Made by a program: the position numbers and the translations under genes. This document shows positions 2,948 to 48,325 of a stretch of 58,260 nt of DNA, piece by piece (the stretch's first letter is position 1; each line of letters starts with the position of its first letter). The stretch lies in the NCBI GenBank assembly GCA_008632985.1, contig QPGO01000314.1, positions 1 through 58,260 on the forward strand, given 5' to 3'. Below the pieces are notes generated by a model. That model saw only the letters and a program-made list of their open reading frames with translations, did no database searches and was not told the origin of the DNA. The stretch comes from Psammoneis japonica. Its lineage: Eukaryota.

Positions 2948-5900
2948 CTCCCCAGTTTGCTTGAGGAGCCACAGAAACAGATTCGACTTCGGATGGAATG
3001 AAGTTCCAGAACATGAGGGGGCGGAGAAGGTCCCAGATTTGGGAGTGACCCCAATGCTTGCTGAGAATGTCAGCAGGGTTGTGGGAGCCTTCGATGAAGT
3101 GGAACTCAAGGCAACCAGAGGCAATTGCCTCACGCACACGGTGAAACGACAGTGCGGTGTGTCGCTTGTGTAACTTGGAGTGCGGGATGGTGGCACTGTC
3201 TACAACCGACTTGTTGTCACCGAACATGTAACTGACATTACGGATTGGGACGCCAAGGCAGCGCAGGGTGATGCGCAGGTCGATGATCTGCTCAACACAG
3301 TTCCTTGCGGCAACAAATTCAGATCCACAGGTTGCAGTCTCCACGGTGGCTTGTTTCTTGGAGAACCAATCAGCCGGGAATTTGTTGAGGAAGTGGAGCA
3401 TTCCCATGACAGAGCGTCCGGTGAGCATGCAATGGCACAAGTTTGCATCGACGCAGTGGGTGGTGGTGACGAACTTGCCAAGGGGCGGTGGAGCGTCCTT
3501 CGGGATCATCTCTTCTGCTTCACCACACACGGAATGCATCCATTCATGGGCCGGAGCAGGGAGATCCGAACAGTCGGGCTCTTCCGTGCGAACGCGGAGA
3601 GCACCGTGTCGCATCTTGGAGAGGTGCCCACAGACGCGTTTGGCACGATCCAAGTGGCCTTGACGGGGCGCAGCTCGGAAGCTAGAGAGTGACATGACAG
3701 CCGTGGCAACGTCAATTCGACCAAGGGACACTGCCCATTGGAGTGAACCAACAAGAGACTGGAACTTGTGAATGCCATCGGGTCCCAGCAGTTCGGAAGT
3801 GTCCAGCTCGGGGTGGTCACCCTTCTCCAGAGGTGACAGGGCGTTGGTGGCAGGTTTCTCCCCAAACAGTCGGGCGCAGCTGTCGACCATGCGCTCGATG
3901 TACTTGCGCGGAGACAGGCACAAGGTTCCGTCGGGGTCCCGGGAAAAGTCGCAACCCAGATGGAACTCAATGGGTCCCGCACCCTTGAGCTTGAACTTGT
4001 GCTTTTCCGTGAGAGTGTCGACGAAAGATTGAGGGTCCTTCATGGCAATGGCGAGGTCATCCACACAAACGAAAAATGTGTTCACAGTGGTCGCCGTTCC
4101 TGCGCATCCAAATGTCGGGTTCGGCGCGGCAGGGGAAGAAGCCTTCAGCTCGCAGGCAGTCGGCGAAGCGCTCGTGCCAGCGGAGACCGGAGCTGCGCAG
4201 TCCATGCAGTGCCTCATGGATGACAAGGATGTGTCCTTCGAGTTTGCCAAATTCGGGTCCAGCTACAATGCAAAGCTTCTCCTTGGTGGTGGCTTCAAGG
4301 TGGGCATTGCCAATGTCTGTGGCCCATGTCTCCAGCTCGTTGAGTTCGGCCAGGAAAATCATCAGCCGAAGGCCACGGAGGGAGACTGCTCCGGAGTAGA
4401 CACTGTCGACAGGTACGTCCGTGAGGTGCCCGTCGGCTACGAGTCGTGCCTTGTGGCGACCGTCGTGTTTCACGTCGCACACCAGGTGCACTCGGATCTT
4501 CTTGTGTCCCGCAGGAGGAGTGGAAGACTTGAAGGGCCCGCAGTCATGGAAGACTTCGTATTCGTCGAGTTGGTCCATCTCGAGATTAGTTGCGTCTCCC
4601 CACTTGCGGTTGCCGTTGCGTTCGTCTAGTGACATGGCGTGTTTGCAGTTCCAGGGAACTTCGCATCCGTGCTTGCAGCGAGGTGCAGTGCGGAAGGAGC
4701 GAAGCTTGGCTTGGTTGGCCATGCGAAATGGCTTCTTTTGGCGCCTCGCGATAGTGCGGAACCGCTTCCAGCCATCCGTGTCGAGGAGTCCGTTCTCTCG
4801 TGCACAGATGGCACAGGTGACGGGGTCGTCCTTGGCGATGATGGCAAGAGGCTCGGACATGATCTCCCCACTTTCCCACCCAAGCATGATGTTGTAGCTT
4901 GAGCCTTTCCAGGTTGGGTCGTGAGGCTTCAGAGGTCCTTCGTGTGACACGATGCGTCGAAATTTCCAAATGGTGGTGTCTTCGTCTTCTTGCTCAATGT
5001 GATTCATGATGTCATTGCAGGCAAGGACTTCCTCGTATTCGTCATTGTTGACAGAGCAGACGAACTTAGTGAGCTCGGGATTGCCGTTCACTTTCCATTC
5101 GTGGTCTTCGACGGCCTTGACGATGCGAGCTCTGTGGCGTTGTCCATCCTCTTGTGGCTGCATGAGGAAGGTGCGTCCAATGATGTCTTGCGGATCGAAA
5201 ACTGGCATCTTGGGTGTCCTGATCTCCCCATCAGGAGAATCGACGGGGTTGTCGTCATGGCAAGATTTGATGATGGGTTCAGGTGGCTCCCCATCAGGAG
5301 GATCAAGACGCAGGTTTCGAACGGCAGGATCGGGGGTGGCAGAGCGAACGTTGGACCGGCAGAGGATCTTCTGAGTCTCGTCAGACAGGATCTTGAAGGT
5401 CATCTGGTGGCCGACGTGCTCAGCAATGCCAACGAAGCGTCCACGCAACTCACGGGATTCGGACGGCCAATCGGAGTCATCGAGGTGGAAGCACACTGGT
5501 TCCCACCAGTGAAAGCGAAGCAATGGGCTGATGTCCGGGGTGGATCCAGTGAGAGTCTCGAGGGGCGTGCGCCAGTGGAGACGTGGGGATGCTGTGTGGT
5601 TGAGCATGAAGCACATGCACATGAGCGCCAGCAGCCATGTGTGGGCGGGCGAACCAAAACGGTCCATGACAGTGTTTGCCATGTGCTTCACGGTCTGGTG
5701 TCGACGCTCGGCAAAGTTTTGGTGTTGCTGGTGAGGCTCACTTTGCCAGCTGGAGATGAAGAGGGCGCGCAGGATCCCGAGCACTTTGTTGCTGATCTCA
5801 ACTTGAGCACGGTCGCCAATGAGTTTGGATGGGGCACCACGTTCACTGATCTGATCCTCGAGTGTGTTGACAAACTCTTTGTCCGTCTCAGTGCCGTAGA

Positions 5901-8564
5901 CGTCAGTGACGGTAGACTCGTGCCAACAACAGTTGGGCGCTGGTGCAACCAGAGTCGACGGCCGGGGTGTCGGCACAAACGGTGTCAGTGGCGACAGGCT
6001 CATTGCGGTGGTGTGCATTAAGGGCGGGGTTGGGTGATTTGCAGGCCTTGCGAAGGTGTGCACCGGCGGGCATGCGGGCGCACTGCGTGGTGCAGTCAAA
6101 AGTGCGACGGACCGCATCAGCAGGTAGGAAGCCAAAGCAAGGCCGAAGAGACTCGAAGGGGGGGTCCTTGGGCTGTACAGTGCGCTCTGGAGGTGGAACG
6201 TCATCGCCCTTGGGGTCAATCGCATGCAGATGACACTCGTAGAACACGTCGTCGTTCGGAATGAGGTGATCATCGAGGGCGGACGCGTGATCGGTAGACA
6301 AGGAAGCGGACAAGATGGTCTCGTTGACAACGACACGGTGACGGCAGTTGCCGCATTCGTCAAATGGGTTGGCAGTGGGATCGTCCTGTGGGTCAGAGAT
6401 CGCGTCGTGCCACTGGTCGTCGTCAGTGACAGAGTGATCGAGGACGGAAGGGTCCCATGTGTCATCACCAGTGAGGATGACATGGGGCAGGGTGTCCCAT
6501 TCGGCGTCAGTGCAAGGTCGCATGGCAACATGAGGCAGGCCAGCCTTGATGTCAATGGGGATGACATAGCCATCAGGAGTGGCAATGCGTTGCAAGCCGT
6601 TGGGCACCTTGACAGAGCGATCGTTGACATCCTGTTTGTGCCATTCGAGCTGGCCGCAGGAATGGATGGTCTTGCCCTTTCCCATGCATGCGCACTGATG
6701 GAGGATGGTGATGACGGGACCACGCTGGGTCTCAATGACGGCACCAGCGGTGACAATGGGGATGTCCACCAATTGATGATCGTCAATGCCCTGAACGTCG
6801 ACTTGGCGAGAGGTGCGTGCGATGACGCGAACGTCGTCGCCAGCAATGCCGCCGTTGGCCCCACGATCGACTAGAGCGCCAGTGCGTGTGGAGCGATGAG
6901 CAGAGGCAGAGCAAATGACATTGTGGTTGTCAACGCGGCGGCAAGTGCGGCCGCCAAGTTCTGTGTCATCTGCAGGAGCAGGCGAGGTAGAGGGAGCGGC
7001 GGATGGGCCCGGTCGACCAGCGTTGGGGGGTTGGTTAGGAGACAACAGGCGTTGCAGATCACCGGGTGGCAGTGGCTTGCGCTTGGTGAGGTGCGCCAGG
7101 ATGGGATTGTCCGAAGTGGCGTCCACATGTGCAGCGGAGTCACCACAGTCAGCAGGAGTCGTGTTGGACAAGTTGACATCACCGTCACTCCCAAGGTGTT
7201 GGTCGTGAAGGTTGGCCGTAACAGACTCATGGCAGTTGCTGGCTCGCGGGTTGCGGGGAGGCGGACGAGAGTGCTCAAGGATGATCGCCTTGGAGGAATC
7301 GGGCAACGAATCCCAGAGCCGTTGGTGGTCGGGAGGGAGACGTCTCCATTGGACACCGGTGAGGCTGGGACCGCGGGTGCAGGCAGCATTGGCTTGAAGG
7401 ACGTCAACGTCGCTGTCAATGTCGTAGAACACATCATCGGACGGTTCCTCGGAGCAGACGTCGTGTGCGCACATGGCGCATCGGGGAGCTCGAGGTGTCG
7501 TCTTGGGTTGAAACGTGCTGTCGTGCTGAGCTGCCGCGGAGAGGAGCAAGCCACAGCATTGATCGCATGTGAGGCTCTTGCCACTCTGCGTGCGATGCTG
7601 ATCAGCTTGGTTCTTGACAGCACGGAGTTCCTCGACAGGGTGCACGGCATTCTCGAGCATGACGCGCTTCTGTCCTTCAGAGAAGTGGTCACTGGCGGGG
7701 ATGAGTGCCTCGCACTTGCGCAACTGATCTTGCCAATGAAGGATGAACCCGTGGGTCGGACCTTTCCAAGTGCCATCACCAAGACGTGCGGTGGTGAGGT
7801 GCGTGAGCAGGGTGGAGGACTCGACAGATGCACGGGTGGAGGCAAGCGCGTGCTCAGACAAGGAGCGGTGGACGGTCTGTGCGTCAGAAGACCCCACATT
7901 TTCGCGAATGAGAGCCTTGCCCTTGTCGGTGAGAAGGATGCGTTCGAAGACGGCGAACATGTGCTTTTGCTGTTCAGCAAAGAGCAGTTTGTCTTCGGGG
8001 CTGGTCGGTTTGTACGACGAGTCTAGAATGCACTCGACGTCTTGGGCACGGGCTTGTGCCACAAGTGAGGTGTGCCAAGTGTGCCACTGCTTGTCGGATT
8101 TGAGAGCCGTGAAAGCGGTGGGATCACGCTTGATGCCTCGCTTGAAGTCTCGCACCGGGTCGCGTGCCTTGGTCGGGTTGGTGACATGTGGGAGGTGCAA
8201 GGGGTGAGCTGCCGATGGACACAGAGGACATGCAGTCCGGGCTGAGACGGCAGGCAAGGAACTCGTCATGCGTGAACAAAGAGGAGTCGTTGGCAACGTC
8301 AAGACCTTTGTGTGCTTTGACAATGTACAGGCCAACTGGTGCTGCTAACATGTTCTTATAACCACGGGGCAAAGGGATTGCATTAGTGCCGTTGTCGCAC
8401 TCAAGCGAGTCGATTTGGGACGGCATGAACGTGAACAGTTCCTGATGCGAGTCCGTGCCGTCTTGGGCCAAAGCCAAACGAAGAGGACTCCCAGCACCTT
8501 GGGCAAGCACGGTTCCAACAACGTGCTCGAAACCATCGGTTTGTTGCTGACGAGTGAGAACCAT
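2948..8564 (-). pseudogene. Copia gag-pol polyprotein, frameshifted and Tyr-depleted
   Basis: Pieced together from ORFs 8124..8594 (ATG at 8564), 5903..8335, 4057..6864 and 2895..4250, with frameshifts near 8200, 5930 and 4075. The catalytic YVDD reads CVDD. Confidence 0.93.
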
Positions 8565-9503
8565 GGTAGACAAAAGTGGTGTCAGGACAATCAATTCTGG
8601 TTGGGAAGCAAAGGCAGACTCGAAACTTGGGTGAGAATGGACTTGACTTGAAATGGACTTGACTTGAAATCTTGAACTGTCTTAAAATCAGAAGTCGCCG
8701 GGCTTTGTCACCCCGTTCGTTGTCAAGTGCTAAACTTCCTGTCCGGTCCGTAGAGTTGTGCCGGCACGTCCGAACCCGCAGCCAGTGGCGCTTTGGGTTG
8801 CTTACGAGCGGAGTAGCGGGTTGTAAACCCCTGCAGGCAAGCTGACTGGAGGTGGACAAGACCCCCGAACCGTTCTCATTTTATGTCGGTTGGATTTCCC
8901 GATCAGGCTGGCCAGTTGACGCAGGCGCCAGGTGCTGTGGACGAACGAACAAACGCGGGAAAGCACCCTCGCCCCAACGCAGGCTGCAATCACGGCTGCT
9001 TGCTCTCACAGTCGTCCTCGTGGACCTGGTGGAACTGTGGAGCACCAGCAGTCCGGGGCAGATCAGGCACAATGGACTCGGTGTGCTTGCAGAGTGGCAG
9101 CAAAACCGCAGTCCGAAGAGTGGGCACAGGTTCTTGGCCGTGAAGACATGTGTGCACATGTGTGTCTTCAGCGAGGGAGATCCTTGAACATGCAGGGTTC
9201 TTGACCGTTGACCGATGAATGGGCACACCAAGGGATGAGGATCAAGGACAGACTTGGATGTGACCGTTGAATGCATGTCTTCAACGATCAAAGGCAGTGT
9301 GATCAATCCAGATGTCCAGCGGCAAGGAGACTTGACGGTGACGTTAACTTCCTGCCGATGCCCTGGTGTTGAATGCGCGCAGACTTGCCGATGCATGCAG
9401 GACACACACGGAGGTCCACGCAGAATTGAAGTGGCATCGTTGGCAAATCAACGACGACGATGGCGGTTGCTCAATGGGTTGACAATGAGCAAGACTGTCA
9501 ATC

Positions 9504-9779
9504 TGACAGAAATTGAAGGCAAATGGCAAGAATTCAAACAACAACTCCTTGCTGCTGTCTAAATGGCAGATGAGTCTCCGCTCAGAGACCGTTGCAGGAG
9601 CCGAAAGACGTGCAAGTCGGCACAATCGGGCTGCTGTTGTTGTTCTTGTGAGCCTTGTGGCTCGAAAGCAAACTGCATCGCGCGTGAACGCGCGGAACTA
9701 AAGCACACAAAACTGTGCGCGGTAAACTGAACAGCGTGCGATGCTTCGCGCGCATCCAAATCCTGTTCAAATCCTGTCA
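9504..9779 (-). repeat. 5' LTR of Copia element
   Basis: Direct repeat of 2672-2947, followed by TSD AAGAG. The internal flank on the minus strand reads GATTGACAGTC..., not a canonical TGG-type PBS. Confidence 0.97.
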
Positions 9780-11471: not shown

Positions 11472-12582
11472 GCCCCCAAAAAGAGCTGCTGCACATCATC
11501 GCAATCAACACATTTTTGTTCTCCTCCCCTGAGCCCCATCAGGTGTTCATCCTCTCAAAAATTACCCTCGTCACCCGGGTTGTCCGCAAAAGGGCAAGGC
11601 AACTCCCCCCTGCCCTCGCCATTTTGGGAAACCCCAAATGGGCAAAACCAAGCTGAGCCCCCGCAACCAGCAGGTCAAGCTGTGGTGTCTCAGTGCTCTG
11701 TTTTGTTGCTGACCAATGGAGGTGTGTTGTTGGATTTGGGGCAAGGTGAGTGTGTGAAAATGGTGACTTTTGGCGATTTCATCAAATGACAGATTGAAGC
11801 AATCGAGATGGTCCGTCATGTCATGTCCGTCACCAGTCGGCCTGGTCAGTCTGCCCGTCATGCGTTGAGAGAAGCAGAACCGTTATTTGCAGTGATGCAC
11901 ACCATGACCGAAAATGCCCAGCCTTTCGTTTTCAGCCACAGGCCACAGGAAAAGGCAGCTCATTATTTCGACAGAACCTCATCAAGAGACACAATGTCCT
12001 GAATGGGTGAAAAACAAAAAGCCTCTGCTGCTGTAAATTGTGAACTTGGGGGCAGTGTTGTGCTTCCGAAAAATTGACTATGTACGACAAGAAAGAGCGA
12101 CTTGTGTCAGTGACCGTGTTCACGTAAATCATGCTTCAAAGCCCCCTGGGAAGTGTGCCATGGCATTCCACTGGTCGAATCTATGCATAAATTGACCTCT
12201 CAAACGGAGCTTCTCGGTGATGACCTTGTGTGTGGAGTGCATACGGTGTCGCGGATCTCTTCCTGCATAGCGAGCTACGGTAGTGTCGACATGCTCGTTT
12301 TGAAAAGTGCTTTTGCACTGGCTCTCTCTCTTCGACTGGATTGTTGTGCTGCAAGACACAAGAGCCAATCGCAAGAACTTTTTTCTCTCTGCGGAGAAAA
12401 CGACGCATTTTCCGTCGTTTGCGAACGCGAGTGTCATCACATGTACTGTACATACCACGTACCGCGTAGTTTCTACGCAGGCATGACTCGGGATCGCGAA
12501 ATAGTAAATGAGTTGTTCTCACTGTTCTCATACTTCTACACTGTACACAACATCAAAACCAGATTGATTGTCAACTGCCGTG

Positions 12583-14454
12583 ATGAATCATCGTAGAAAG
12601 AAATTGAAAAGATTGGAGAAACGTCTTGGTCGCCGTGGCAAGGAACGCCACGATGAAGGAGAAGGAGGCTTGTTGGAAGAACAGGCAACAGCAAGTTACG
12701 GTCTCGGCTCTATTATCAACGATATTCATGTTGACGAAGAGACTATGGAAGAGGAACAAAAGGTTGAAGAAACTGATGAAAGTAGTCCAGCATCTACCTT
12801 GACGGGTGCTCATGCAATGAGTCAACAAGGGGAGGTCCGTCGTGGTAGTGCACAAGCAGGTGGCGACGATGTTAGCCATGCCATTGTGTGTGACGTGGAG
12901 ACGGATCCCATGCCTCCTCCACAGCCAGTGCAGGGCAATGAAGCACTTCTTGTAGAAGCCCATTTAGTTGAACGGGCTGATAATGCAGAAGATGTGCGAG
13001 AACAAATGGCTACACTCGAGCAAGAAAACATGCGACTTCGAAATAAAGTTCCGCTAGTACAAGCCGAGGTCGCTCAAGAAAATACGAGAAGCAAGGGCCC
13101 TCGTCGCAAATGCTTGATTGTTATGGGTGTTACAGCACTTCTGATTACTGTGGCGGTTGTTGCTGGAGTTTCTGTCACTGGAGGCGGTGGCACGTTTCCG
13201 CCGATCCCCCCGCAGTCTCCAACATTGTCGCCCACTGTTCCACCCATGCAGTCTCCCACTAGACCCCCTATTACTGTCATTCCTGCTGATTGGATTCCCG
13301 CTGGTCAAATCTTGCATGGCAAAGCGGTGTGTGATTTTTTTGGCAGTTCTGTATCCTTGTCTCGTGATGGTCGTGTCATGGCTGTTGGCGCAACGCCGCA
13401 ATGTTCCAATCGCGGCTATGTTGGTGTCAATCGATACAATCCTGCCACCCATGAATGGATGCAAATTGGCCAAGAATTGATCGGACAAGCCGGCCTCGAC
13501 AATTTTGGAGAGTCTGTTTCGTTAAATGGCGACGGCACCATTCTTGCGGTTGGAGCTCCATTGAATGACAGTGGCGGAACGACAGCCGGTCAAGTGCGAG
13601 CGTATGAATACAACTCTGTATCGGATCATTGGGTCCAACTCGGTAGCGATATCCTTGGACAAGACTCCGGTGATGAATTTGGCATTTCCGTGTCGCTGTC
13701 GGACGCGGGAGACATTCTTGCCGTGGGAGCACACAGGGATGATACGGAAAAAGGTGTAAAGTCTGGTTCGGTTCGATTGTTTCAATACGACCGCGGCACC
13801 TCATCCTGGAGCCAACTCGGACAAACGCTGATTGGCCAAGCCGCTTATGATCATTTTGGCTTTTCCGTCTCCTTAAATGCGCTGGGAACCATTGTTGGAG
13901 TTGGAACAATTGTATGGGCTTCGAGTGACGCTGGCCAAGTGTCGGTGTATGAATACAATTCTACATTGGCAAGATGGGATCTGTTGGGGGATCCAATCAA
14001 ACGCCAAGATGTTGATGATTGGTTGGGAGACTCCGTTTCTCTTGACGACAGCGGTGTGATCGTGGCCGCAGGTGTGCCTGGAAGCAACCCGAGGGTTTTG
14101 GTTTATTCGTACGACCGCTCGACTTTGACATGGAATCAACGTGGCCAAACTCTCTTTTCACAACACCCTGATGATCTTGTTGGTTTCTCGGTGTCGTTGA
14201 GTGGAAATGGAAATGTCTTGGGGGTCGGAAGTGGAATGCGGGGTCAAGTTCGAATCTTTCAGCATGACAGCAATGCAGATGAATGGAAGCAAGTTGGCGA
14301 TCCTTTAAATGGCGAGGCTGAGCATGATGAAGATTTTGGACATTCCGTGTCCTTGTCGGCCGACGGAAGCGTCGTTGGAGTTGGCGCGCCCATGACTGAT
14401 GTCAATGGCGACAGGTCCGGATCCGTGCATGCATTCACGGCAAATGACAATTAG
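12583..14454 (+). CDS. Single-pass membrane protein with FG-GAP-like beta-propeller repeats (paralog 1)
   Basis: Intact ORF; ATG at 12583 matches the start of paralog 2. Acidic N-terminus, short coiled coil, one TM helix (LIVMGVTALLITVAVVAGVSV), Pro-rich linker, seven FGxSVSLSxDGxxLAVGA-type repeats. Confidence 0.88.
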   Translation: MNHRRKKLKRLEKRLGRRGKERHDEGEGGLLEEQATASYGLGSIINDIHVDEETMEEEQKVEETDESSPASTLTGAHAMSQQGEVRRGSAQAGGDDVSHAIVCDVETDPMPPPQPVQGNEALLVEAHLVERADNAEDVREQMATLEQENMRLRNKVPLVQAEVAQENTRSKGPRRKCLIVMGVTALLITVAVVAGVSVTGGGGTFPPIPPQSPTLSPTVPPMQSPTRPPITVIPADWIPAGQILHGKAVCDFFGSSVSLSRDGRVMAVGATPQCSNRGYVGVNRYNPATHEWMQIGQELIGQAGLDNFGESVSLNGDGTILAVGAPLNDSGGTTAGQVRAYEYNSVSDHWVQLGSDILGQDSGDEFGISVSLSDAGDILAVGAHRDDTEKGVKSGSVRLFQYDRGTSSWSQLGQTLIGQAAYDHFGFSVSLNALGTIVGVGTIVWASSDAGQVSVYEYNSTLARWDLLGDPIKRQDVDDWLGDSVSLDDSGVIVAAGVPGSNPRVLVYSYDRSTLTWNQRGQTLFSQHPDDLVGFSVSLSGNGNVLGVGSGMRGQVRIFQHDSNADEWKQVGDPLNGEAEHDEDFGHSVSLSADGSVVGVGAPMTDVNGDRSGSVHAFTANDN

Positions 14455-16420: not shown

Positions 16421-17282
16421 CAAATTGTGTCGCCAAACATGTGTGATGCACCATGCACACATCCCACAGAACAGGCAAAGCAAGGTCTCTCTTTCTTGAC
16501 TTCTTCTTGCTGTCCTGATCTCATCAACCAGGTCCACAATCCAGCCATTGACTCTCTCAGGATTCAAATCAAACAACTCCACGCCATTGTGGAGCCACTT
16601 GTTCAACTGGTCTGCATGGTTGATGGTGTCATGGTGGAAGAATGATGCCAACTTCCTTGCATCACAAGTGATGCCATCTGTGTCCCTCATGAGCCCACAA
16701 TGACTCCCTGCAGTGTCCGGCAGACCGGGGCTTTCAATGAGCTTCACAAGGGGACAACACACCCCATCCTTGTCCATGCCACAGGCAGGAAAACAGATGT
16801 TCAACAACCTGGGTGAGATGTCAACATCACTCTTGTTGAGGGTCAATTGCAAATCATTGCCCATTAATCCAGTGGTGTGCTTTGCCATCATCAAGTTGTT
16901 TTTGAGACAACACAGCTCACCTTGCCTCCAGGCTTGGTGCCTCCCACAACATGACAACATTCCTTGGTCCTGTGTGCTCTGTCAGAACAACATTTGAACT
17001 CAGATGCTCTCCTTGGATCATCATGAATGGAGAAAATTGGTGCAGTGGTGGACACACACTTGAGTGCCTTGGAACTCCACAGTGGCAATTGCTTGAGCAC
17101 TCCATCAACTGGTGCCTGTTCTTCCATGGGTCTTGCCACAAACCCAAGGTTCTTGATCTGATTGGTGACAGAGAAATCAAGGTGCCAAATGATGAGTGCT
17201 CTAGACCACTTGCTGGCACACTCCTGATTGGTTTCCATCAGAGCAGTGCTTTTGTTGTGCTGACAGGGGTTGTTCTTGTTGG

Positions 17283-19990
17283 TTGGATGCCCCTGAACAT
17301 TTAACAGCCAACGACAGCCTTGCAGAGATCATCAGCTGTGTGAACAATGAGAAAGCCTTTGCAAACAAAGGCAGCAGCAAGAAGCAAGACAAGCAAAGGG
17401 AAAGCAATGCTCCTTCACCCCAATCTTCAAGACATTGTCATGGGAGTGGCAGCCAAGTGGATCCAGAGTCCAGGTGTCCGGCACACACCAATCATGACCA
17501 CAAGCGGAAGGGCTGTCAAGGTGGAGGCCAAAGCAATTGTCAAGGCAGAGGTTTGCAAGACCAAGGAGGTTGTGGCAACTTCCGAGGTCAAGGACGTGGT
17601 GTTTGTGGCAACCAAGGCAATTGTGGCAGCCAAGGTTGCGGCAACTGTCAAGGTCCCCAGAATTCTCAAGGTGGAGGATCCTGTTGTCAAAATCAAAATG
17701 GCGCACAAGCCAACCGTGACACCCAAGGCTGTAAAAATCTGGCTGGAGCAGCTCCTCCTGGTGACTGGCAAATGGAGTTGCACCATTTTGATTGAGAAGG
17801 GCCTCATGAGTTGTGAGGTGGAAATGGGTGCAACCAAGGTGGTTGTTTCCCTCCAGCCAGCAAGCATTGCATGTGTTGTTAGATTCAGGAGGCACTGACA
17901 CCCTTGTGCATTCTCATGTTTCACCCAAGGGAGCCAATCCAACTGTGAATGATGAGGGGTGGCTGAGTTTTCAGACAGCAGCTGGGCATTGTGAATCATC
18001 CCAATGTGCCATCATGAAGAATCTGGTGCCACCCGCATTTGACAAGTCCAAACAAGTTGATGGCATTGCTGCTCAAGCTTTTGACTCTCCGTGCAAACAT
18101 GATGTGAGACATTGAGCCAAGAAGGCTGTCTTTCCAAGGCCAGCACAACACTTGATTTTTGGTTTGGAGTCATGAAGTGGTTGGATGATTTGATCCCAAT
18201 GAAGCAACCCAATCATTGGAATCAAGTTCATGGCTGGTTGGATGTGCTGGACAACCACAAAGAGGATGAAGATGATGAGGACCTCCAGGGTCAAGCTTTC
18301 ATCATGCCAGATGTCAAGTGTGAGAGAAGGTGTCAACTGTGAAAGTGACACAATTGCAAACTCATTTGACCCAGGACCAACGTGACAAGCTTCACACCAT
18401 GCTTGAAAAGCACAAAACCCTCTTTGATGGGACGGTTGGCAAACATCTGCATGAAACCAATTTTTGGAAGTTGATCCTGGTGCCATTCCCTTTCACTCTA
18501 AAGCCCACAAAGCACCAAAGAGAGATGAGGCTGTTTTTAAGAAGGAACTGCACAACATCTTTGCAACGTTGGCACACTGGAATCAGCAGGACCAACAGAG
18601 TGGGTGGCCGGAACCTTCCCAACACCCAAAAAGGATGGACAAGTGGGATGTGTGTCCAACTTCCAAGAATTGAACAAGGTGCTCAAGTGGAAGGTGTCCT
18701 CCACACAATTTACACCAACAATTGGGGTGCAAGTTTTTAACCAAACTGGACCTCACCATGTTCTGCTGTCACATCGAGCTTGACAAAGAATCCAAGGATT
18801 TGCATGCTGTTGTTGCTCTGCTTGGAAAGTTCCAACATTGTCAACCAGCCATGGGTCTGAAAACTTCTCCCAACATTGCTCAAACTGTCATTGAGAAAGT
18901 GTCAAACAAACTTGATGTCAAAGCTTGTGTTGATGACATTGCTCAATTTGATGACTTGTTTGACACTCACATGCAGCACCGACTTGACAAGTTGCAGTCC
19001 AGACTGGAAGAGAATGACCTCAAGGTCAATCCACTCAAGTGTGAGTGGTGCGTCCAAGAGACGGATGTTCTGGGTCATTGGCTCACACCTGCAGGAGCTT
19101 GACCATGGAAGAAAAAGGTCAAAGCAGTTCTGCAGATGCAACCTCCTCAGAATGTGATGCAGCTGCAATCTTTCATTGGTGCAGCATCCTGTTGTCACAA
19201 CATGTGGCCTCATTGCTCTCATGCACTTGCTCCACTTACAAAGTCAACCAGCAAGAGCAAGTTGGAATGGACCCCAGAGTGTCAGAAAGCCTTTGAAGAC
19301 ATGAAAACATTGATGTTGGACAACACCCTTTGGGTCCACCCAAACCACAACAACTCCTCCAACTGTCAGATGGGTGCAGCGATCATGCAAGAAGGGAAGC
19401 CGGCAGCACATTGGTCTCAGAAGCTCAGTGCAGTGCAGCAAAATCACTCCACTGTTGAGAAAGAGCTCCTTGCTGTGGCAATGTGTTGCAAAGAATTCCG
19501 CACCATGTTGCTTGGGGCTGATTGTGCTGTTTTCACTGACCACAAAAACCTCACCTTTTGTGTGCTCAACTCTCAACAAATGCTCAGGTTGAGACTCTTT
19601 TTGGAGGACTTTGCTCTGACCTTCAAGCATGTTGACAGCAAGGATGACTCAATGGCAGATTGTTGTTCCCAATTGCCTTGCATTGAACCTCCAATGGAAG
19701 GAAATTGTGCTCCCAATCAGGGCAAATTGATGGATTTCAAGGCAATTGACACTGCCACACCACCTCATGAAGAGAAACTTGACAACCCAGATCACGTGTC
19801 TTGTTTTTCCTTTTGTTGTGAAGAACCATCTCATTTCCACTCCTCCTTTGTTGATGATCCTGATCTGTGTGAATCATTTTTGAACTGTCCCTCACTTGAC
19901 AAAATGCAAAATCCCACAACCATGCAGTCAATTTAAGAGCACCAATTTGTCGACATGGAATTGAGTGACATGCAACACAACAAAACACAA
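17283..19990 (+). mobile_element. Ty3/Gypsy retrotransposon relic (gag end, protease, RT, RNase H; integrase not seen)
   Basis: Protease LLDSG (~17880); RT KFLTKLDL...AMGLKTSPNIAQ...CVDDI...LKVNPLKCEW...LGHWLTP; RNase H QMGAAIMQEGKP...EKELLA...FTDHKNL...MADCCSQLP. Many stops and frameshifts. Confidence 0.9.
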
Positions 19991-20049
19991 AACCCAAATT
20001 CATTTTTTAAGGTGCTGCCACACTTCTGCTCTGCAACTCTGGCAAACAA

Positions 20050-29260: not shown

Positions 29261-29380
29261 CTCTACCGGCATCTCATTGCATTGTGGTGAAATCGGGTTC
29301 GCGTATCGCATCTTTATCTCGTTTCTCGTTCGTCGTTCGTGCCGAAAAAAAAAACGTAAGATGACTTTTTATCAATCACC

Positions 29381-31231: not shown

Positions 31232-31289
31232 ATTTGTATTTGCATTTCATGATTTTGTCTCTTCCGTTGATTATGTTTGTTGAAAAATC

Positions 31290-31646
31290 AAAAGACAGCA
31301 GCAGTGTTATTATGTAGAGAGAAATGCAAAAGAAGTGTATCGCAAAAGGCAATGTCTAACACTTGTCATAAGTATAGTGGTGTTCAATCTATCGCTTCTT
31401 CTCCAACTCGCTACTGCTCCAAATAGAATATACTAAAGTTTTTTTACGCCAGCGGCACAATGGGAAAGGGGCAGGCATTCGACTGAATGATTGCGACAAT
31501 GATTCCAATCCCCAACGCCGAGGTAAAGGTTTCAACAATCAAAATCATGACAACCAAACTGGCATATCCTGCGCATCCGCCAAGGCACACGATGATCCGG
31601 CAATGCCGACATTGACGCCCGATGCAACATTGTAGGCCGACACTAC
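31290..31646 (-). pseudogene. Second truncated copy of V-ATPase c'' 3' end and UTR
   Basis: ...ILIVETFTSALGIGIIVAIIQSNACPFPIVPLA* matches the C-terminus of 33875-34616, with indels; UTR similarity continues. TA and CG are retained. Confidence 0.9.
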
Positions 31647-31727
31647 CTAGCGCCCGATGCATGCAATCACATTGAGAAAATAACAACACTTCCACATATA
31701 CTCTAAAATAACAACTACTACTGTTCT

Positions 31728-33533
31728 TCACCTCTCTTTTAAACGATTCTGCATCATACTCAATCCCAATTCATAAATCGTCGACGACAAGAGTCGTTCT
31801 TCCCGTTTTTGTGCCGCCTTTTCCGACGCACTCTTGCTTTCCAACACTTCGATCTTGTCTTGTTTTTCCTTCAACTTGGCCTTGCATTCTTGGAGTGCCA
31901 CGAGATACTTTTCTTGAAATTTCGCCAAGGTCTTTTTCGTGTAGGCTTCGAGTTTTTCCTTATCGGACGAGAGCTTGGCACGGGCCGATTCCTTTTCGGA
32001 TAATTCCAGTGTTAAGCGTTCGACTTGATCTTGAAGCTTCTTGACCGCCTCGTCGGAATTGGATGCAACTGCAGTACCACCACTTGCCCTTAATTCTTGC
32101 AATTCCTTTTGAAGGTTTTGATTTTCAATTTCAAGTCGCATTGTCTTTTCCTTACTTTGCGCATCATCCACAAGACTCAATCCACCCACCGCAGGCAAAG
32201 CATCATGATGATGATCGTGATGAGAATCCGATTGGAGTTTCAATTGCTCCAGTTCTTCTTGATACATTTTTTTCGCGGATTCCGCCGCCGTCCATTGACG
32301 TTTGGTATCGGCCAATTCGGCAGTCGCCTTGACACTTGCCTCCTTGGCTTGTTCGTTTTCCTTTTTTAATTTTTTGACCGAATCTTTTAATTCTTGTACT
32401 TGCTTTTGCAAGGCCGGCATCTTTTTGACTTGTGATTCCAATTCGACAATCTGTCGTAAATACGACGCCGATTGTTGTTCACTTTCCAACAATTTGGAAT
32501 GAATGTTATCGACGCCCTCCAATTTGTTACGATAGGCCGACACGGTCGTTTCGGCTTTTTGCAATTGCAACGCCTTGGCATTGGCAACATCCAAATCATC
32601 CGCGAGTTGCGCGTGGGATTCTTGTAGTGTACTCAATTCCGTTTGGAGTGATTCGAGTTGCGACGTTTTTTCCGACAACTCTTCTTCACTGGCAATCAAT
32701 TCGTCTTGACGCTTGACCAAACGATCCTGCAAATCTTGAACGAGACCTTGCAATTTTTGGAGCGAGGCTGCATCGTCGGCTTCTCGGATGCTCGCTTGCG
32801 ACTTGAATTGAGCAAATTCGCGACGCAAATCCGTCAGGGATTGTTCGACTACTGAAGAAGAACTAGTAGTGTTTTCAAACAAGTGCTCGGGTTCATCATC
32901 TTGCTCTTCCTTGTCTTGATTAAACACCAGTTCCGCGTCTTCTTCTTCTTCATCCTCATTGCCTTGATAATCACTCGTTTGTTCCAACGAGGCTTGAATA
33001 ATTTGCTTCATTTGCGATTGAGACGTGGCCGACAGCTTCATAATTTTGGCAATATACTGTTGCTTTTGTTGACACGTCACGGCGGCAGCCGCTACAATAT
33101 GCACCAATTTGGAAATCTCTTCCACACTCTCATTCCGAGCAATTTCGGATACCTTGAAGGAAGCAAAAAAATCACACGTCTTTTTCAATTCAACATGAAA
33201 ATAATGTTCCATATTTCGCAATAATTTACGTAAATTGCTACTCTTGAGAGCCCAATTGTCACCCAAATGACGAGCAATTGTGGTGGGATCAAAATAATCG
33301 GGGGCGCTGTAAGAGAGAATACATAACGTGAGTTTGAGTACATGCAGTAGTAAGCAACATACCGTACAACATACGATTCTAAGCATATAGACTTACATTT
33401 CTGCCATGCATTCAAAGAGTGCTACACCATCACTCAATTCCTCGAGACTCGTGGGTGGTGTACCCGAAAGAGTTTCAAAGGTGGATAGAAATTCCACCAT
33501 GGCGGCGGCATTGTTATCTGAAGATGACGACAT
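31728..33533 (-). CDS. HOOK-family coiled-coil protein (microtubule/dynein adaptor-like); 2 exons: 33397-33533 and 31728-33306
   Basis: Hook-type N-terminal domain (LEELSDGVALFECMAEI/APDYF...NWALKSSNLRKL), long coiled coil, C-terminal REERLLSSTIYELG. The GTAAGT...ACAG intron 33307-33396 restores the frame (AT|C = Ile). Confidence 0.88.
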
Positions 33534-33874
33534 GGTATGGTTGATTACAACGGACCGCCGCAAGTCATGGCCGTGTGTTGTGGCATGTTTGTGTTGTTGG
33601 CACGAACCAGTGTATGGGGGAAGGTGTGTAGGATTTGCGTATGTAGAATTAGACAGGCTGTTTGTACTGAGACGACGGGCGTTGTCTTTCATCATTATGA
33701 AAAGCTTTGTATCTGTATAGTTTATTCCATTACGAGAACTATACCCATAGATAAATATAAACTATATATTACATAAGGAAATATATACATTTGAATCCTC
33801 ATCCGTTACCTCCCAATTCGCAGTCATTGCTTTTCCCTGCAGCACTCGCCGTTGAAAACACTTTATCATCCACC
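33534..33874. promoter_or_regulatory. Putative bidirectional promoter between HOOK and V-ATPase c'' genes
   Basis: 341-bp head-to-head intergenic region with an AT/TA-rich core (33715-33790). Confidence 0.55.
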
Positions 33875-34616
33875 ATGTCTTCCGATACGTGTTCGTCTGA
33901 ATTTTGCAATGCCGGTTGGTCCGAAGTCTTGACTCACATGAGTCCCTATGGTTATGCCAATTTTGGCATTGCCTTTGGACTTGGATTGAGTGTTGTGGGT
34001 GCCGCATGGGGTATTTGGTTGACGGGCTCCAGTTTGGTGGGTGCGGCCGTGAAAGCACCGCGTATTCGGAGTAAAAATCTAATTAGGTATGTAGAATGAA
34101 TACTGGAAATGTAGAGTGAACACGAAAATGAAAGAATTTGGGAGAAAAACAAACAACAACACAACAACATGGCATCGCTTCTCTATTTTATCACTAGTCA
34201 CTCTCTTCTCTCTCTCTCTTCTCACACTCACTCACTCTCTCTCTCTCTACAGTGTCATTTTCTGTGAAGCCACCGCGATTTACGGAGTCATTATGGCTAT
34301 TATTCTCGCCAACAAGGTCAAGGCTCCCGACGATGCCGTTTATTATCTAGATGAAAATTGGGATTGGGCCGGATACTACTATGCCGGTTATGGCATGTTT
34401 TCCGCTGGACTTAGTGTCGGCTTGACCAATATTGCCTCGGGCGTGAGTGTCGGCATTGCCGGATCGTCGTGTGCTCTGGCGGATGCACAAGATGCCAGTT
34501 TGTTTGTCAAGATTTTAATTGTGGAAATTTTTGCGTCGGCGCTTGGTATTTTTGGAATTATTGTCGGCATTATTCAATCGAATGCGTGCACCTTTCCCAT
34601 TGCGCCGTTGGCGTAA
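33875..34616 (+). CDS. VMA16: V-type H+-ATPase V0 subunit c'' (21 kDa proteolipid); exons 33875-34086 and 34253-34616, 191 aa
   Basis: [48 protein letters not shown]...[24 protein letters not shown]. The GT-AG intron 34087-34252 joins the exons in frame. Confidence 0.95.
34201..34250. repeat. Imperfect (CT)n microsatellite / polypyrimidine tract in V-ATPase intron
   Basis: CTCTCTTCTCTCTCTCTCTTCTCACACTCACTCACTCTCTCTCTCTCTAC directly before the 3' AG. Confidence 0.9.
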
Positions 34617-35387
34617 GTAGTATTCTATATTTGGAGTAGGAGTAATAGCGAGTTGGAGAAGAAAAGCGATGGATTTGAACGCGACACGAGGCACTGCAAT
34701 GCAGGTATATCATGATTGTAGGACAAGTAGCAAGTAGTAGATACTGGCTTTTGTTTTTCACTTCTCCCGCGTTTCTCTCTACGGAGGGTCCGAAACAGGT
34801 CGCCTTTTTGACTCGCCATTGAAAAACTTTACTCCATTCCACGGAAGCACCAAAAGTTTTGATGTGTGAGCCGCTCTACTCTTCCCCCCGAGAGTGCATC
34901 GCCACAGAATTGGAACCACAATGCCGAATTGCACTCACACCACATGCTCGAATGACAGTTTTGTGTCTCCACAGATGAATGCAAGACGACTTGAAGAATC
35001 GCAACCTATACTCGTACACAAGCGGATTAGGGCTACACTGTATTGAGTATAGCTCTTGAGAAGAGAGTCGATGCCTGGTAGAGAAATGTGGAACCAGACT
35101 CCACTTGTGCCCCAGTGTCTGGCATGCCCGAGTGTAGCACAAGACGGGGCTTTTGAGCATGTAATTTGCATATAACCGTAGTCGGGTCTTTTGTGCCAAT
35201 GACGATTGATTGGCCAAAGGGCTCGAAAAAGGAATTCAATCGAGTGTGGCAACTCGGGAGAACAACAACAGAGTCCCGCCAAAGGGTTTTCCTCTCAAAG
35301 GTGTTACGCACATTGCTGGTTTTGAGCACCTAAAAGTGTATAGTGGTCACCCAATATTTTGCGGCCTGCGTAAAAAGATGCTGTAGT

Positions 35388-35500
35388 TATTTGGAGTAGG
35401 AGTTGGTTATGAAGAAGAGGCGATGGATTGAACAACACTGTGAACTACAATATGCATGCCATGATCGTAAGAAAAGCATTATAGATGCTGGCTTTTGTTG
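35388..35500 (+). repeat. Additional diverged copy of the V-ATPase 3' UTR
   Basis: TATTTGGAGTAGGAGT...GAAGAAGAGGCGATGGATTGAAC...AGATGCTGGCTTTTGTT parallels 34628-34755. Confidence 0.75.
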
Positions 35501-35680
35501 TAGGTATGGTGCTATGTTGCTCTCTTTTGATGTTCTACAAGCATGACAATGATGCGTCGGTCGTCTTGAGTAAGAAGGATCACTTTTTACTCAATCGAAG
35601 TTTTATTCTTCATGACTGCCAAAAACTGCCATTCTACAAACTGAAGGGGCAACATCATGAAACACATATATTACGCATCG

Positions 35681-37578
35681 CTAATTGTTCGTCGATGTAA
35701 ATACATACACGGATCCCATATTTTTGCCATGGACATCAGTCCAAGGCGCACCAACTGCAACAAGACTTCCGTCTGACGACAAGGACACTGAATTTCCAAA
35801 TCCGCAAAACTCAGTCTCGCCATTTAAAGGATCACCAAACTGATTCCATTTAGTCGTGTTGCTGTCGTATTGAAAGATTCGGACTTGGCCCGCCTCGGCT
35901 ATTCCATCAAGGCAATGATAACGACTTCCCACAGCCAAGGCATTTCCATTACTACTCAAAGACACTGATCAACCAAACCAATCATCGGGCTGTTCCGTCA
36001 AGAGAGTTTGGCCACGTTGATTCCATCTAGACGTCGAACGGTCATACAAAAAAACACGGACGCTATCGTTGCCTAGACCTAAAGGTGAACCTACGGCCAT
36101 GGTCAAACCACTATCGTCAAGAGAAACAGAACATCCAAACCCACCACCTTCAACTTGGCCTTTGATTGGATCACCCAGCAGCTCCCATTTTGAAGAAGCA
36201 GAATTGTATTCATACACAGCCACCTTGCCAGTATCATTATTTCCACCCGAATACTCATGATACGCTCCAACGCCAACTATGTAGCCCGAGCGGCTCAAGA
36301 AACGGAAGCACCATATTTATCACCACCACTTTGACCAAAGAGTGTTTGTCCGAGTTGTTTCCAGGATGAACTGCCGTGGTGGTATCGAAACAATCGAATA
36401 GATCCACAATTTGCGCCATGTTCCGGTTCATCCCCAAAGTCTCCTACAGCAAGAATGTCTCCTGCATCCGAGAGCAACACGGAATCACCATATAGATCCA
36501 ATTGGTTTTTCCAGGAATATCGCTGCCGAGTTGGACCCAACTATTCAATGAAGAGTCGTATTCATACACCCGAACTTGACCGACATACCGACCACCACTG
36601 TCAGTCCATGATGGAGCTCCAACGGCAAGAATTGTGCCGTCACCATTTAACGAAACAGACTCGCCGAAACCGTCATGGTCGGTTTGTCCAAATAATTTTT
36701 GGCCAATTTGTGCCCATTTTCGGGTGTCAGGATTGCATCGTTGCACAACAACACTGCCGGGATTTGAATTGTCGAAATACGTAACTGGCGCTCCAATGGC
36801 CATGACACTGCCATCATGAGACAATGACACCGAATTGCCAAAATTATCGCCTATCGCTTTGCCACGCAAAACTTGACCAACGGGATTCCAATCAGCAGGA
36901 ATGACTGTAATCGAATCAGGTGCAATCGAATCGGTTTCACTGTTACGGCCGAACGGAATTCCAAGTGCAATTGCCACAATGATTACAAATTGTACAATTC
37001 CCATGCAAATCAAGCACACACAATAATGGCGCTTTTCCCTTGCACTTCCTAAAGCAGTCCCCGCCAAACCCTCAACCTCCCGTTCTTCCTGAGCAAGTTC
37101 AGCTTGAGCAAGCGGGACGGCCTTTCGAAGAAACACGTTTTCTGCTCGAGTCTACATCTTCCAGAGCTTCTGTTGGTTCAGCCACAAGAGCTTCAACCAA
37201 TAGCGTCCTTGCATCCCGGCCGGGTGGTGGTGGAGGCATGGGATCCGATTGTGCCGTTTCCAAATCAGATGCAATGGTGATGCAAGTGTCGCCGTCGCAT
37301 GCTTGACCGCAACGGACCTCCCCTTGTTGGTTCACCGCAAAAGCACCGGCCGTTGCAGATAGAGGAGCAGCGACTTCATCGACTTCTTCTACCTTTTCTT
37401 CTCCCTCATGCTTTTCATCTACGAGGATGCCGTTGGCAGAACCAAGAGCACACTTTGATGCTTGATCTTGTGCACTTTGTTCCAACAACCCTTCTTCTCC
37501 TTCTTCATGCCCGTCCTGACTTCTACCACCAAGACGTTTCTCTAATGCTTTCATGACCATGTTGCGACGATTCACAAT
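35681..37578 (-). pseudogene. FG-GAP-like membrane protein paralog 3, pseudogene
   Basis: Collinear with paralogs 1 and 2 but split over five ORFs (37099..37596, 36444..37136, 36295..36540, 35969..36298, 35681..35965). It has frameshifts, an in-frame TGA (WFG*SVSLS), and ATT GTG where paralog 2 has ATG ATG. Confidence 0.9.
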
Positions 37579-37719
37579 GGCGATTGATTCAATCAACTTT
37601 GATGTTGCTTTCTGTTTTCTGTATAATAATGATGTGAGAACATGCGAAAGGAGAACTCGTTTCGTTTTCTCGCGACATCCCAGTCAAGTCATGTCTGATG
37701 ATGTCTGCGTAGAATTTTA

Positions 37720-45725: not shown

Positions 45726-46075
45726 GATGGGTTCCAGTCCTGGGTGGGACTCCGTGTGACATTGGGCCCGCAGAATTCTACGTGCAAGCTCCGCAGCAAA
45801 TTTACACTGAAATGAAAACATGTGTGATTGCCAACAGAAAAAGAGGCAATTTTATGAACGCATCTCCTCCTTCATGCTTGGAGCACATCATTGACAGTTT
45901 GCCCGGGTGTGTTCTTCAGACATTGAAGAACATGCCCAGCGCATTTTTGTTCTTGCAAATGTTGAAAATGGCCCGGGTGTGTGTTCTTCAGACATTAAGA
46001 ACACACCCAGCACATTTTCATTCTCATGAATGTTGAAAATAGAAAGCCTTTGGCTTTGCAAACAGGGAGCATGAA
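45726..46075. mobile_element. MITE subtype B, TpA-depleted copy with internal ~70-bp duplication; right end lies in the gap
   Basis: Aligns with 44238-44517; duplication at 45901-45970 / 45971-46040. Inserted between the RT and RNase H regions of the Ngaro element. Confidence 0.88.
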
Positions 46076-46493
46076 NNNNNNNNNNNNNNNNNNNNNNNNN
46101 NNNNNNNNNNNNNNNNNNNNNNNNNNNNNNNNNNNNNNNNNNNNNNNNNNNNNNNNNNNNNNNNNNNNNNNNNNNNNNNNNNNNNNNNNNNNNNNNNNNN
46201 NNNNNNNNNNNNNNNNNNNNNNNNNNNNNNNNNNNNNNNNNNNNNNNNNNNNNNNNNNNNNNNNNNNNNNNNNNNNNNNNNNNNNNNNNNNNNNNNNNNN
46301 NNNNNNNNNNNNNNNNNNNNNNNNNNNNNNNNNNNNNNNNNNNNNNNNNNNNNNNNNNNNNNNNNNNNNNNNNNNNNNNNNNNNNNNNNNNNNNNNNNNN
46401 NNNNNNNNNNNNNNNNNNNNNNNNNNNNNNNNNNNNNNNNNNNNNNNNNNNNNNNNNNNNNNNNNNNNNNNNNNNNNNNNNNNNNNNNNNNNN
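46076..46493. other. Assembly gap (N run)
   Basis: Run of n. Confidence 1.
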
Positions 46494-48325
46494 GCAAGCT
46501 CTTGGATGCGCACAGGACAATCTTTGATGGTTGTGGTGAGATCGCAAAATTCATCCAAGACACTGTGCACGGTGGGAGTCAAGCAGACATGGGAGTTGGG
46601 CAGGGTGTGATGGAGAGCATCTTGCAGCTCAGAGAAAAGGCCTTGGGAGCCAGGAGTGGCAAGCAAGAGTGAACGGAGTTCTCCAAGCAACTTGTGGCAG
46701 TTGGTGGCGGCAGCACATTGATGGGTTCAGGGGAAGTCCTGGGTGAGAGTGTCGCACAGTCAACCTGAACGTCGGGTGGTGAGACGCAGTGTCACAGCTT
46801 TGGTGTCGATGAGCCATCCGAGGACCTCTTTTTGTGTGGACCAGGAGGCGTCACTTTTGCAAAGCTTCTTGACAGAGATCGGTTTGGTGTGGCGAGGTGA
46901 GTCATCTGGGGCCAAGGGACAAAAAATGTCGTCAATTGCAGCCATCAGAGTGTGACGCACATTCAAACAGGCAGCGCGTGAGCCCTGTGGCCCCAATGTA
47001 ATCATCAACATGTGTCTCCACATGAGCAAGGTGATGGTGGTGTCGATGTCCAAGGTGTGGGTCAGGGATGTTGGGAATTGGGACGGTGATGGTGTCGGGC
47101 AGCGGTGGCGGTGTTGGCCGCAACGGCAGGCAGCGACTCATGGCAGCACGCTCCAAACAATGAGGTGGTGCCTGGCAGTTGCAAAGGAGGAGTTGGTTGG
47201 TGATGTCAGCACCAGTTTTGGTGGTGGTGCTAAAGGCAGGTGGCAAACTCTTCCATCCCATTGGCAACTTGGCAGGGATGGCGACAAGTGGTGGCTCGCC
47301 TGGCAGACTGGGGAAGGCAATGGCCAGGACCTGTGCATGGTCCAGTGCCAACGTCATGCAGTGGAATCCGTCGGACATGTCAAAGGCTCTCGGTCCTGAG
47401 TCCCCGAGCTGGGACCATTGCCAATGACCCATTTGGTCGTCCAATGCTCCGTGGCCCAAGTGAAGAGTGCATCTTGCTCTGCTTGACTGTGGCCTCCACG
47501 ATTGGCGCGGGTGTTGCAATTGGAGTTGCGCTGTCCCTTTAGATGGAAAGGGAGGCACCACGGATTCCCACTGGCATCCATCGGCAGGGCAATGTTGGCC
47601 GCAGCACACCTGTCCTTGACTGCATGGGAGCGGACCCCCGGCCTGGCGCGAATCTCATCGAATCGCGTGTCGCAGCGCTCATTGCAAATCAACGTGTTGG
47701 CACCTGGGCTTGCCACTCTTGGGGGAGTGGTAGGTTGCTGTGGTGCAGCAGGCGGTTGGGGTGCTGCCAGTCAAGCTTGGTGCGGCAAGACGGCCGCAGG
47801 CAAGTCGCACCTCCAATGCATGGCACCTTTGGCAGCCAGGCAAACAGCGGGTTGTCCTTCAAAGGGCAGGGGTTGGTCAGTGCGTGCCTGGTCAGTGAAC
47901 CACTGCCCGATCTCTGTCTGGGCCCAACGTTGGAGGTCTGCCGGCAAAGTGGGGTAGCGCACCATTTGTCGGGCCATCTCGTTGGCACACAAACATCCAT
48001 CGCACAGCATTGTTGTCCCAGCCAAGTCATGACCACATGCTGGGTTCCTAAACTGGTGGCGAGGATGACCTGGTGACCGCTGCAGCAGGAGTGTTGGGCT
48101 CCCTGCATTGTGGTGGCGACCCTGGCTTCATCGGGTGCCTCCAGGATCTGAGTGTCCGCTGCACTGGGTGCGTTGTCTCCACCATGGATTTGATGGCAGA
48201 GTGCGTTGCGGTGCACAATTTGCTCTTCTTGCTTGGGCGTCGTGAGACCAAAGATGAAGGGATTGATCCCTTGGGCAAGGTCGTCTTGATTGTGTCCAGC
48301 AAAATTCTTTTGGAGCAACTTGACA

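Follow-up and report, generated by a model that had tools for sequence, protein, structure and literature searches.

Altered reverse transcriptase motifs in the diatom Psammoneis japonica as a symptom of genome-scale TpA conversion in mobile DNA

The stretch of DNA analysed here (the window) spans positions 1–58,260 of contig QPGO01000314.1 of the diatom Psammoneis japonica (assembly GCA_008632985.1), and holds both transposon blocks and host genes. Four reverse transcriptases (RTs), belonging to a Copia, a Gypsy, a long interspersed nuclear element (LINE) and a Ngaro-type element, carry Cys or His at the aromatic position of the YxDD active-site motif (Table 1). An earlier note, made from the letters alone, had reported these substitutions, and the codons were confirmed in all four motifs; each altered codon is a single transition away from TAT or TAC. 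The dinucleotide TpA is scarce in the window, with an observed-to-expected ratio (o/e) of 0.23 overall, mostly 0.00–0.2 in the transposon blocks and mostly 0.45–0.76 around the host genes. The altered motifs are one outcome of a TpA mutator that acts on the scale of the genome and does not single them out.

The Copia and Gypsy RTs were identified directly by Pfam, and those of the LINE and the Ngaro-type element through relatives only. An RVT_2 match places the Copia motif in the RT domain, and the family of this element has 124 scored matches across the 91-Mb assembly. The Gypsy motif lies inside an RVT_1 match (E 9e-13, 18674–19099), and the RNase H open reading frame (ORF) of the same element contains no Tyr in 277 amino acids. 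No Pfam RT match was found in the LINE piece of the window; a sister copy has a weak RVT_1 match (E 0.01), and its outside relatives are mostly proteins of 1900–2100 amino acids with the endonuclease domain PF03372, a few of them with RVT_1. The Ngaro-type piece of the window likewise gave no Pfam match, and a sister copy matched RVT_1 (E 0.001). The name Ngaro is the assignment of the earlier note; no recombinase is visible in the window element, and its sisters carry downstream a GRWxS motif, which we take to be that of a recombinase. Searches of the PDB with LINE and Ngaro copies returned zero matches.

Contigs from the public sequencing run X1 are identical (0 differences) to 18048–19048 and 20790–27609. 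Of the four motifs, this agreement takes in just those of the Gypsy and the LINE, and the run may derive from the sample used for the assembly. The depth of the X1 contigs is approximately 32 over unique transposon DNA (17000–27600) versus 43–67 over genes (31600–36000), a depth that is not a copy number; the block at 17000–27600 may lie on one homologue only. A second locus (L092, contig C2:548553–552655) shows 99% identity to the Ngaro-type region of the window, with several 1-bp indels and transitions between them, and is either a haplotype copy or a recent duplication.

Table 1. Features of the window on which the analysis draws (coordinates of the whole stretch).
Feature	Position	Strand	Details
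Copia RT motif CVDD	4056–4067	-	TGT GTG GAT GAC; TGT from TAT; frameshift just upstream in the window copy
Gypsy RT motif CVDD	18926–18937	+	TGT GTT GAT GAC
LINE RT motif CVDD	23166–23177	-	TGC GTG GAC GAC; TGC from TAC
Ngaro-type RT motif HVDD	47001–47012	-	CAT GTT GAT GAT; CAT from TAT
Full-length Copia long terminal repeat (LTR) retrotransposon (diatom CoDi-like)	2672–9779	-	7108 bp; 5-bp target-site duplication; LTRs, Pfam RVT_2
Copia 3' LTR	2672–2947	-	276 bp; 96% identity to 5' LTR
Copia 5' LTR	9504–9779	-	276 bp; paired with 3' LTR
Degenerate Gypsy pol, protease to RNase H region	17852–20005	+	TpA o/e 0.03–0.07 in 1-kb windows 17001–20000
Degenerate LINE ORF, endonuclease-RT family	21619–24554	-	sister copies and outside relatives
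Ngaro/DIRS-type RT region	46496–48009	-	N run 46076–46493; no recombinase motif seen in the window
Host FG-GAP-repeat gene	12568–14454	+	comparison; TpA o/e about 0.5
Host FG-GAP-repeat gene	29360–31231	+	comparison; 3.2% Tyr
Host HOOK gene	31728–33392	-	comparison

Among sister loci covering the motif, the aromatic position is Tyr in 23, Cys in six and His in one of 30 for Copia, and Tyr in 20, Cys in six and His in three of 29 for Gypsy. The Ngaro-type loci show Tyr in three, Cys in two and His in five (n = 10), and the LINE loci Tyr in one, Cys in 14, His in 11, Arg in one and a stop in two (n = 29), two rows in each of these last two sets representing one locus. Since 119 of 120 outside relatives of the Copia protein have Tyr, Cys and His occur at the motifs far above background substitution; they dominate the changes at this position, against the possibility, raised in the earlier note, that they might be no commoner than other changes. 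Their frequency is no higher than the local loss of TpA predicts. The caution of that note that the LINE ancestor could have had Phe was fair, because the outside relatives are mostly FxDD (106/120, with YVDD in 14/120). Within this genome, a Phe ancestor is rejected: Phe columns of the LINE copies are still Phe in 149 of 185 states and Tyr columns have changed to Cys or His in 271 of 384. With 14 Cys, 11 His, one each of Tyr, Arg and stop, and no Phe, the motif column acts like the Tyr columns, so that the ancestor here was Tyr. Judged by this comparison of sequences, all four altered motifs derive from Tyr, the LINE included.

The signature of the process was read from an alignment of 20 full-length Copia copies and the window copy (21 in all). 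At 248 TpA-class sites there are 1845 TA, 1963 TG, 1305 CA and only 5 CG among 5118 states, corresponding to a conversion of 64%; in the window copy, 52 of the 248 sites remain. If both bases changed independently, 451 CG would be expected, and an intact TpA dinucleotide is therefore required. Per base, A>G amounts to 0.317 at TpA versus 0.008 at other adenines, and C>T at CpG to 0.025. The Gypsy family gives the same picture (231 sites in 20 copies: TA 1095, TG 1851, CA 1539, CG 8 of 4493). One Copia copy with a large divergent stretch (L134) was excluded from several of the analyses of individual copies.

Paired LTRs are identical at the time of insertion. The 21 Copia pairs now differ at 73 TA/TG, 57 TA/CA, 48 CA/TG and 36 CpG sites, in addition to seven other transitions and ten transversions (at one locus with three LTRs, the outer pair was compared); the seven differing sites of the window pair are four CA/TG, one TA/CA and two CpG. 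The type of mutation is shared between 20 Copia copies at the level of chance (mean z −0.10, standard deviation 1.11). Together, these observations place the conversion in chromosomal DNA, after insertion and separately in each copy. Both strands are altered in every Copia copy, with A>G on the sense strand making up 52–65% of the changes.

The conversion extends well beyond the two aligned families. Across 390 kilobases, sampled as 39 stretches chosen regardless of content, TpA o/e is bimodal, falling below 0.2 in 168 of 390 1-kb windows (approximately 43%), and it is inversely correlated with CpA/TpG (r −0.90). Most Copia copies sit in erased DNA; two insertions adjoin TpA-rich DNA, and there the edge is sharp. 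Among DNA transposons, TpA o/e is at most 0.18 in 10 of 16 piggyBac matches, some of which overlap. The earlier note had ascribed all four substitutions to one TpA mutator acting whatever the element class, and the signature in the Copia and Gypsy alignments and in piggyBac bears this out. Its claim that tyrosine recombinases are damaged also held: because a PF00589 profile search of the assembly gave no match, the recombinase was scored by reading the motif in 20 Ngaro-type sister loci, and in the 15 showing it (two near-identical, one degenerate) the likely nucleophilic Tyr is His in seven, Cys in five and Tyr in three. Pfam named 9 of 125 ORFs from erased DNA, several of them weakly. CpG o/e is 0.25 in the oldest erased windows and about 0.9 in young Copia; in erased blocks, TpA is lost first and CpG later.

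The genetic code determines the kind of damage that follows. A change of TA to TG or CA never turns a sense codon into a stop, and it removes TAG and some TAA; consequently, damage takes the form of mass missense, from Tyr to Cys or His. Each Copia copy has lost 32–57 of 61–65 Tyr codons (52 of 65 in the window copy) and has acquired 0–1 stops, with 49–91 missense changes derived from TpA versus 5–34 from CpG and 6–40 others; no internal stop is present in 115 of 124 Copia matches. Codon classes show no clear difference (p 0.22). A change at the aromatic position of YxDD alone need not abolish RT activity, and the elements are likely to be inactivated through dozens of missense changes per copy. 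Loss of TA would also deprive mariner and piggyBac of their insertion targets, TA and TTAA.

Host genes served as the comparison. The two FG-GAP-repeat genes and the stretch 36444–37683 are members of a large family of membrane proteins with 100 matches, many of them on contig C2. Thirty of these were looked at, and 29 have a TpA o/e of 0.20–0.51 and 2–5% Tyr. FG-GAP pairs at 85–90% identity show few TpA differences, and two pairs above 99.5% identity, which may be haplotypes, show none. The named best matches of the HOOK protein, at approximately 50% identity, are from Seminavis, Synedropsis, Epithemia and Nitzschia, which places the host among the diatoms, and likely among the pennate ones. 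The mostly spared gene family and the sharp edges of insertions are easier to reconcile with guidance through element-specific silencing than with copy number or a broad spread.

We put at about 0.7 the probability that the four motifs were altered when a post-insertion process turned most TpA in the mobile DNA of this diatom, Tyr codons included, into TpG or CpA, likely through a host enzyme working on silenced chromosomal DNA and likely as a genome defence. The change is A:T to G:C at intact TpA on either strand, in retrotransposons and DNA transposons alike and independently in each copy. What leads the process to transposon sequence would be a mark of silencing, be it 5-methylcytosine (5mC), small RNA or heterochromatin, and less so copy number as such. 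Our best guess at the chemistry, which we hold at slightly under even odds, is that adenine is deaminated to hypoxanthine, which replication then fixes as G; the alternatives are a modified base and a polymerase prone to error.

Several observations weigh against this interpretation. The alignments that were scored also served to define the TpA-class sites, and one of the rules, at most one CG, slightly favours a low CG count. One of the 20 Gypsy copies is just 15% converted, and 6 of 16 piggyBac matches retain a TpA o/e of 0.37–0.56. Of the 30 FG-GAP paralogues one is erased, and duplicates with an FGGY-kinase-like fragment range from partly converted to erased. The FG-GAP values of 0.20–0.51 are themselves rather low, which makes a weak effect on host genes conceivable, and the sparing of genes may be partly due to selection. 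Flanking bases, discussed below, explain only part of the differences between sites (cross-validated r 0.42). Finally, searches of the assembly with PF00383 and PF14437 show an ordinary-looking set of deaminases, none of them marked out as the enzyme.

By their motifs, we take these deaminases to be a dCMP deaminase, a TadA-like and an ADAT2-like protein (L176), two guanine-deaminase-like proteins and RibD; no expanded or fused deaminases were seen in the assembly by exon-wise searches, which can miss genes. The assembly also encodes several C5-methyltransferases, one adjoining a chromodomain. None of these deaminases and methyltransferases is tied to the TpA process by the present results. 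One group of the methyltransferases (L258, L259, L265, L262–L264 and L268) has an H(A/L)SPPCQ-type motif and is presumably RID/DNMT4-like; three lie in TpA-normal DNA, and further copies on contigs C297 and C301 are TpA-erased. A predicted open frame at L175:313–1785 (-) unites a nucleoside/base deaminase domain with a 2-oxoglutarate–Fe(II) dioxygenase.

The strongest alternative, which we consider unlikely but the only serious competitor, is that conversion arises as a by-product and did not evolve for defence. Miscoding would then come from methylated adenine or oxidised thymine, as the modified base at TpA in silenced DNA, or from a polymerase that makes errors in heterochromatin. The failure to find a dedicated deaminase suits this view, as does the conversion of host-gene duplicates within erased blocks (both of two FGGY-like duplicates are partly converted). 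Conversion per copy tends to rise with CpG decay (rho 0.44, p 0.05), and strand-processive tracts within Copia copies are weak only (z 1.4–2.2), as slow site-by-site change would give; no clear nucleosome-length periodicity of conversions was seen in the copies. What speaks against a by-product is the strict requirement for TpA and a per-base rate approximately 12 times that of CpG decay and 40 times that of other adenines, together with the activity of the comparable process of Bigelowiella in some lines only, as described in the preprint cited below.

The earlier note had further held that RTs are hit efficiently through the YxDD Tyr, and a special targeting or vulnerability of this residue would account for four of four altered motifs in the window and for Tyr in just 1 of 29 LINE loci. 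The wider families contradict it, and we regard it as very improbable. In 100 listed of 167 Copia matches (rows of a pattern search, counted by eye), the motif has Tyr in 83, Cys in 14 and His in three, and of the Tyr codons at four and six residues upstream just seven each remain. The first 30 of these rows agree with a separate scoring of 30 Copia loci, in which YxDD is kept in 24, the second highest of 16 Tyr columns in the family; in Gypsy it is kept in 20 of 29 loci. Special targeting is thus refuted for Copia and Gypsy. The four-of-four result in the window needs no special cause, because 52 of 65 Tyr codons are gone from the Copia element, and nearly all TpA from the older elements.

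Retention instead tracks the flanking bases. Copia TpA sites are retained at 0.25, 0.43 and 0.62 with zero, one and two of T at −2 and A at +2, and the corresponding contrast in Gypsy is 0.16 versus 0.43. Surviving TpA sites have T at −2 in 54% of cases in erased windows versus 27% in intact ones, and A at −1 in 7% versus 27%; a purine at −1 is rare among them. Retention of the same site agrees between the 5' and 3' LTRs (rho 0.76, n 18). The motif Tyr is retained in 46 of 63 cases in the T−2/A+2 context versus 3 of 33 outside it, a comparison confounded with family and made on copies that are not independent. The Copia and young Gypsy motifs lie in protected contexts and the LINE motif mostly does not, and the retention of the Copia YxDD is likely to result from protection of TpA by these bases. 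Selection on re-transposing copies was rejected as its cause, there being no shared mutation patterns and no effect of codon class.

Editing of element RNA or complementary DNA before insertion, in the manner of ADAR or APOBEC, could draw on the excess of sense-strand A>G in every Copia copy and on the preference of ADAR for a 5' U; it is ruled out, leaving it hardly any probability, by changes on both strands of every copy, by TpA differences between paired LTRs and by the erasure of piggyBac, which has no RT step. Decay of CpG in Arg codons (CGN to TGN or CAN likewise yields Cys or His, and CpG is depleted in old blocks), natural RT variants and base-calling artefacts have next to no standing, given Tyr in outside relatives and sister copies, the near absence of CG at TpA-class sites, and the exact X1 contigs at the Gypsy and LINE motifs.

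Among known systems, fungal repeat-induced point mutation (RIP), which depends on RID/DNMT4 and the sexual cycle and is linked to homology pairing, likewise leaves repeats scarred on both strands, through transitions that follow insertion and are specific to a dinucleotide. The diatom process is not RIP, because its direction is opposite (A:T to G:C): RIP makes TpA from CpA and creates stops, whereas the diatom process removes TpA and cannot create stops. The FG-GAP host family with its 100 matches is mostly spared. RIP hits any near-identical duplicate; in the diatom, the FG-GAP pairs show few or no TpA differences, and the two FGGY-like duplicates are both partly converted. APOBEC and ADAR cause context-specific, deamination-type hypermutation of mobile elements on one strand of complementary DNA or RNA before insertion; in contrast, the diatom process affects both strands after insertion and includes DNA transposons. 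Deamination of 5mC at CpG shares the compartment and the TG/CA products and occurs in the diatom too, but starts from CpG and is approximately 12-fold weaker per base in young copies. Methylated diatom transposons carry 5mC, with DNMT5, and a RID-related DNMT4 of unknown function occurs in diatoms, according to the sections of PMC9998398 used here.

The closest parallel comes from a rhizarian, Bigelowiella natans. According to the preprint by Mettrop et al. (bioRxiv 10.64898/2026.01.13.699255), two viral inserts acquired 231 new mutations, of which 230 are A>G/T>C, all at TpA; the inserts are integrated DNA of nucleocytoplasmic large DNA viruses and virophages. The de novo rate is approximately 1000 times background and is switched on in some lines only, residual TpA is high (rho 0.45), 124 depleted clusters are described, and an ADAT-type deaminase (ADAT2/3) is proposed, not shown. 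Both organisms convert TpA to TpG/CpA on either strand of foreign or mobile DNA far above background, and RT and DDE domains are enriched among the TpA-poor coding sequences of Bigelowiella. The two differ in that Bigelowiella offers two single-copy viral regions mutating de novo and the diatom standing copies only, with approximately 43% of sampled kilobases near saturation, all tested transposon classes affected and a flanking-base rule. The diatom changes are likewise A>G/T>C almost only at TpA, on both strands of integrated nuclear DNA; they are confined mainly to transposons, yet some host-gene duplicates are erased. By analogy, the diatom process works like TpA hypermutation in Bigelowiella. 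The main text of the preprint does not mention diatoms, the part of PMC12344493 covered holds nothing on TpA, and no report of the process in diatoms was found in the full-text literature, with subscription papers outside the scope.

Judged from sequence comparison, lineages outside this genome that show the TpA signature are in the minority. Among 120 outside Copia proteins, P0180 alone shows it, with Cys or His at 6 of the 17 Tyr columns that are conserved. So do two of the 80 metagenome loci, L337 (8 of 16 Tyr columns) and L318 (6 of 13), both with a TpA o/e of 0.30–0.31. Both sets were ranked by similarity, so that no frequency is derivable. All three are at 64–68% identity to the Copia family of this diatom, and a further locus, L300, is borderline. 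The flanking-base rule was not seen in L337, L318 and L300, which at about 50 TpA each give low power. Tentatively, and with odds somewhat on the lower side of even, we suggest that the editing of adenine in DNA serves some diatoms as a dedicated defence guided by silencing, either in common with Rhizaria or by convergence. This defence would have rewritten more than 40% of the genome and would kill all transposon classes by stripping Tyr without making stops.

Further observations concern the remainder of the window. Contigs of run X2 (listed as 'DNA?') skip 33306–33397 (with CT..AC ends) and 34086–34256, like spliced minus-strand introns, and the run is probably RNA; its contigs lack the transposon block, which says nothing on expression. 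The exon at 34095–34616 (-) resembles one of a V-ATPase proteolipid subunit. At 436–1900 lie three tandem 371-bp units, 99% identical, almost without TpA and CpG, and with no Pfam match.

These results add a diatom to a mutation system known so far from a single preprint, on a single rhizarian alga; in the diatom it is near-saturating and affects every transposon class tested. The loss of TAA and TAG leaves long open frames, and dead elements therefore look intact to annotators; insertion ages based on LTRs would be inflated by TpA conversion. Hundreds of independently converted copies yield a sequence preference that is a fingerprint for finding the enzyme. To our knowledge, no natural enzyme routinely deaminates adenine in chromosomal DNA. 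If the proposed process is true, it would stand opposite RIP as its A:T counterpart and would be a source of a natural adenine editor of double-stranded DNA.

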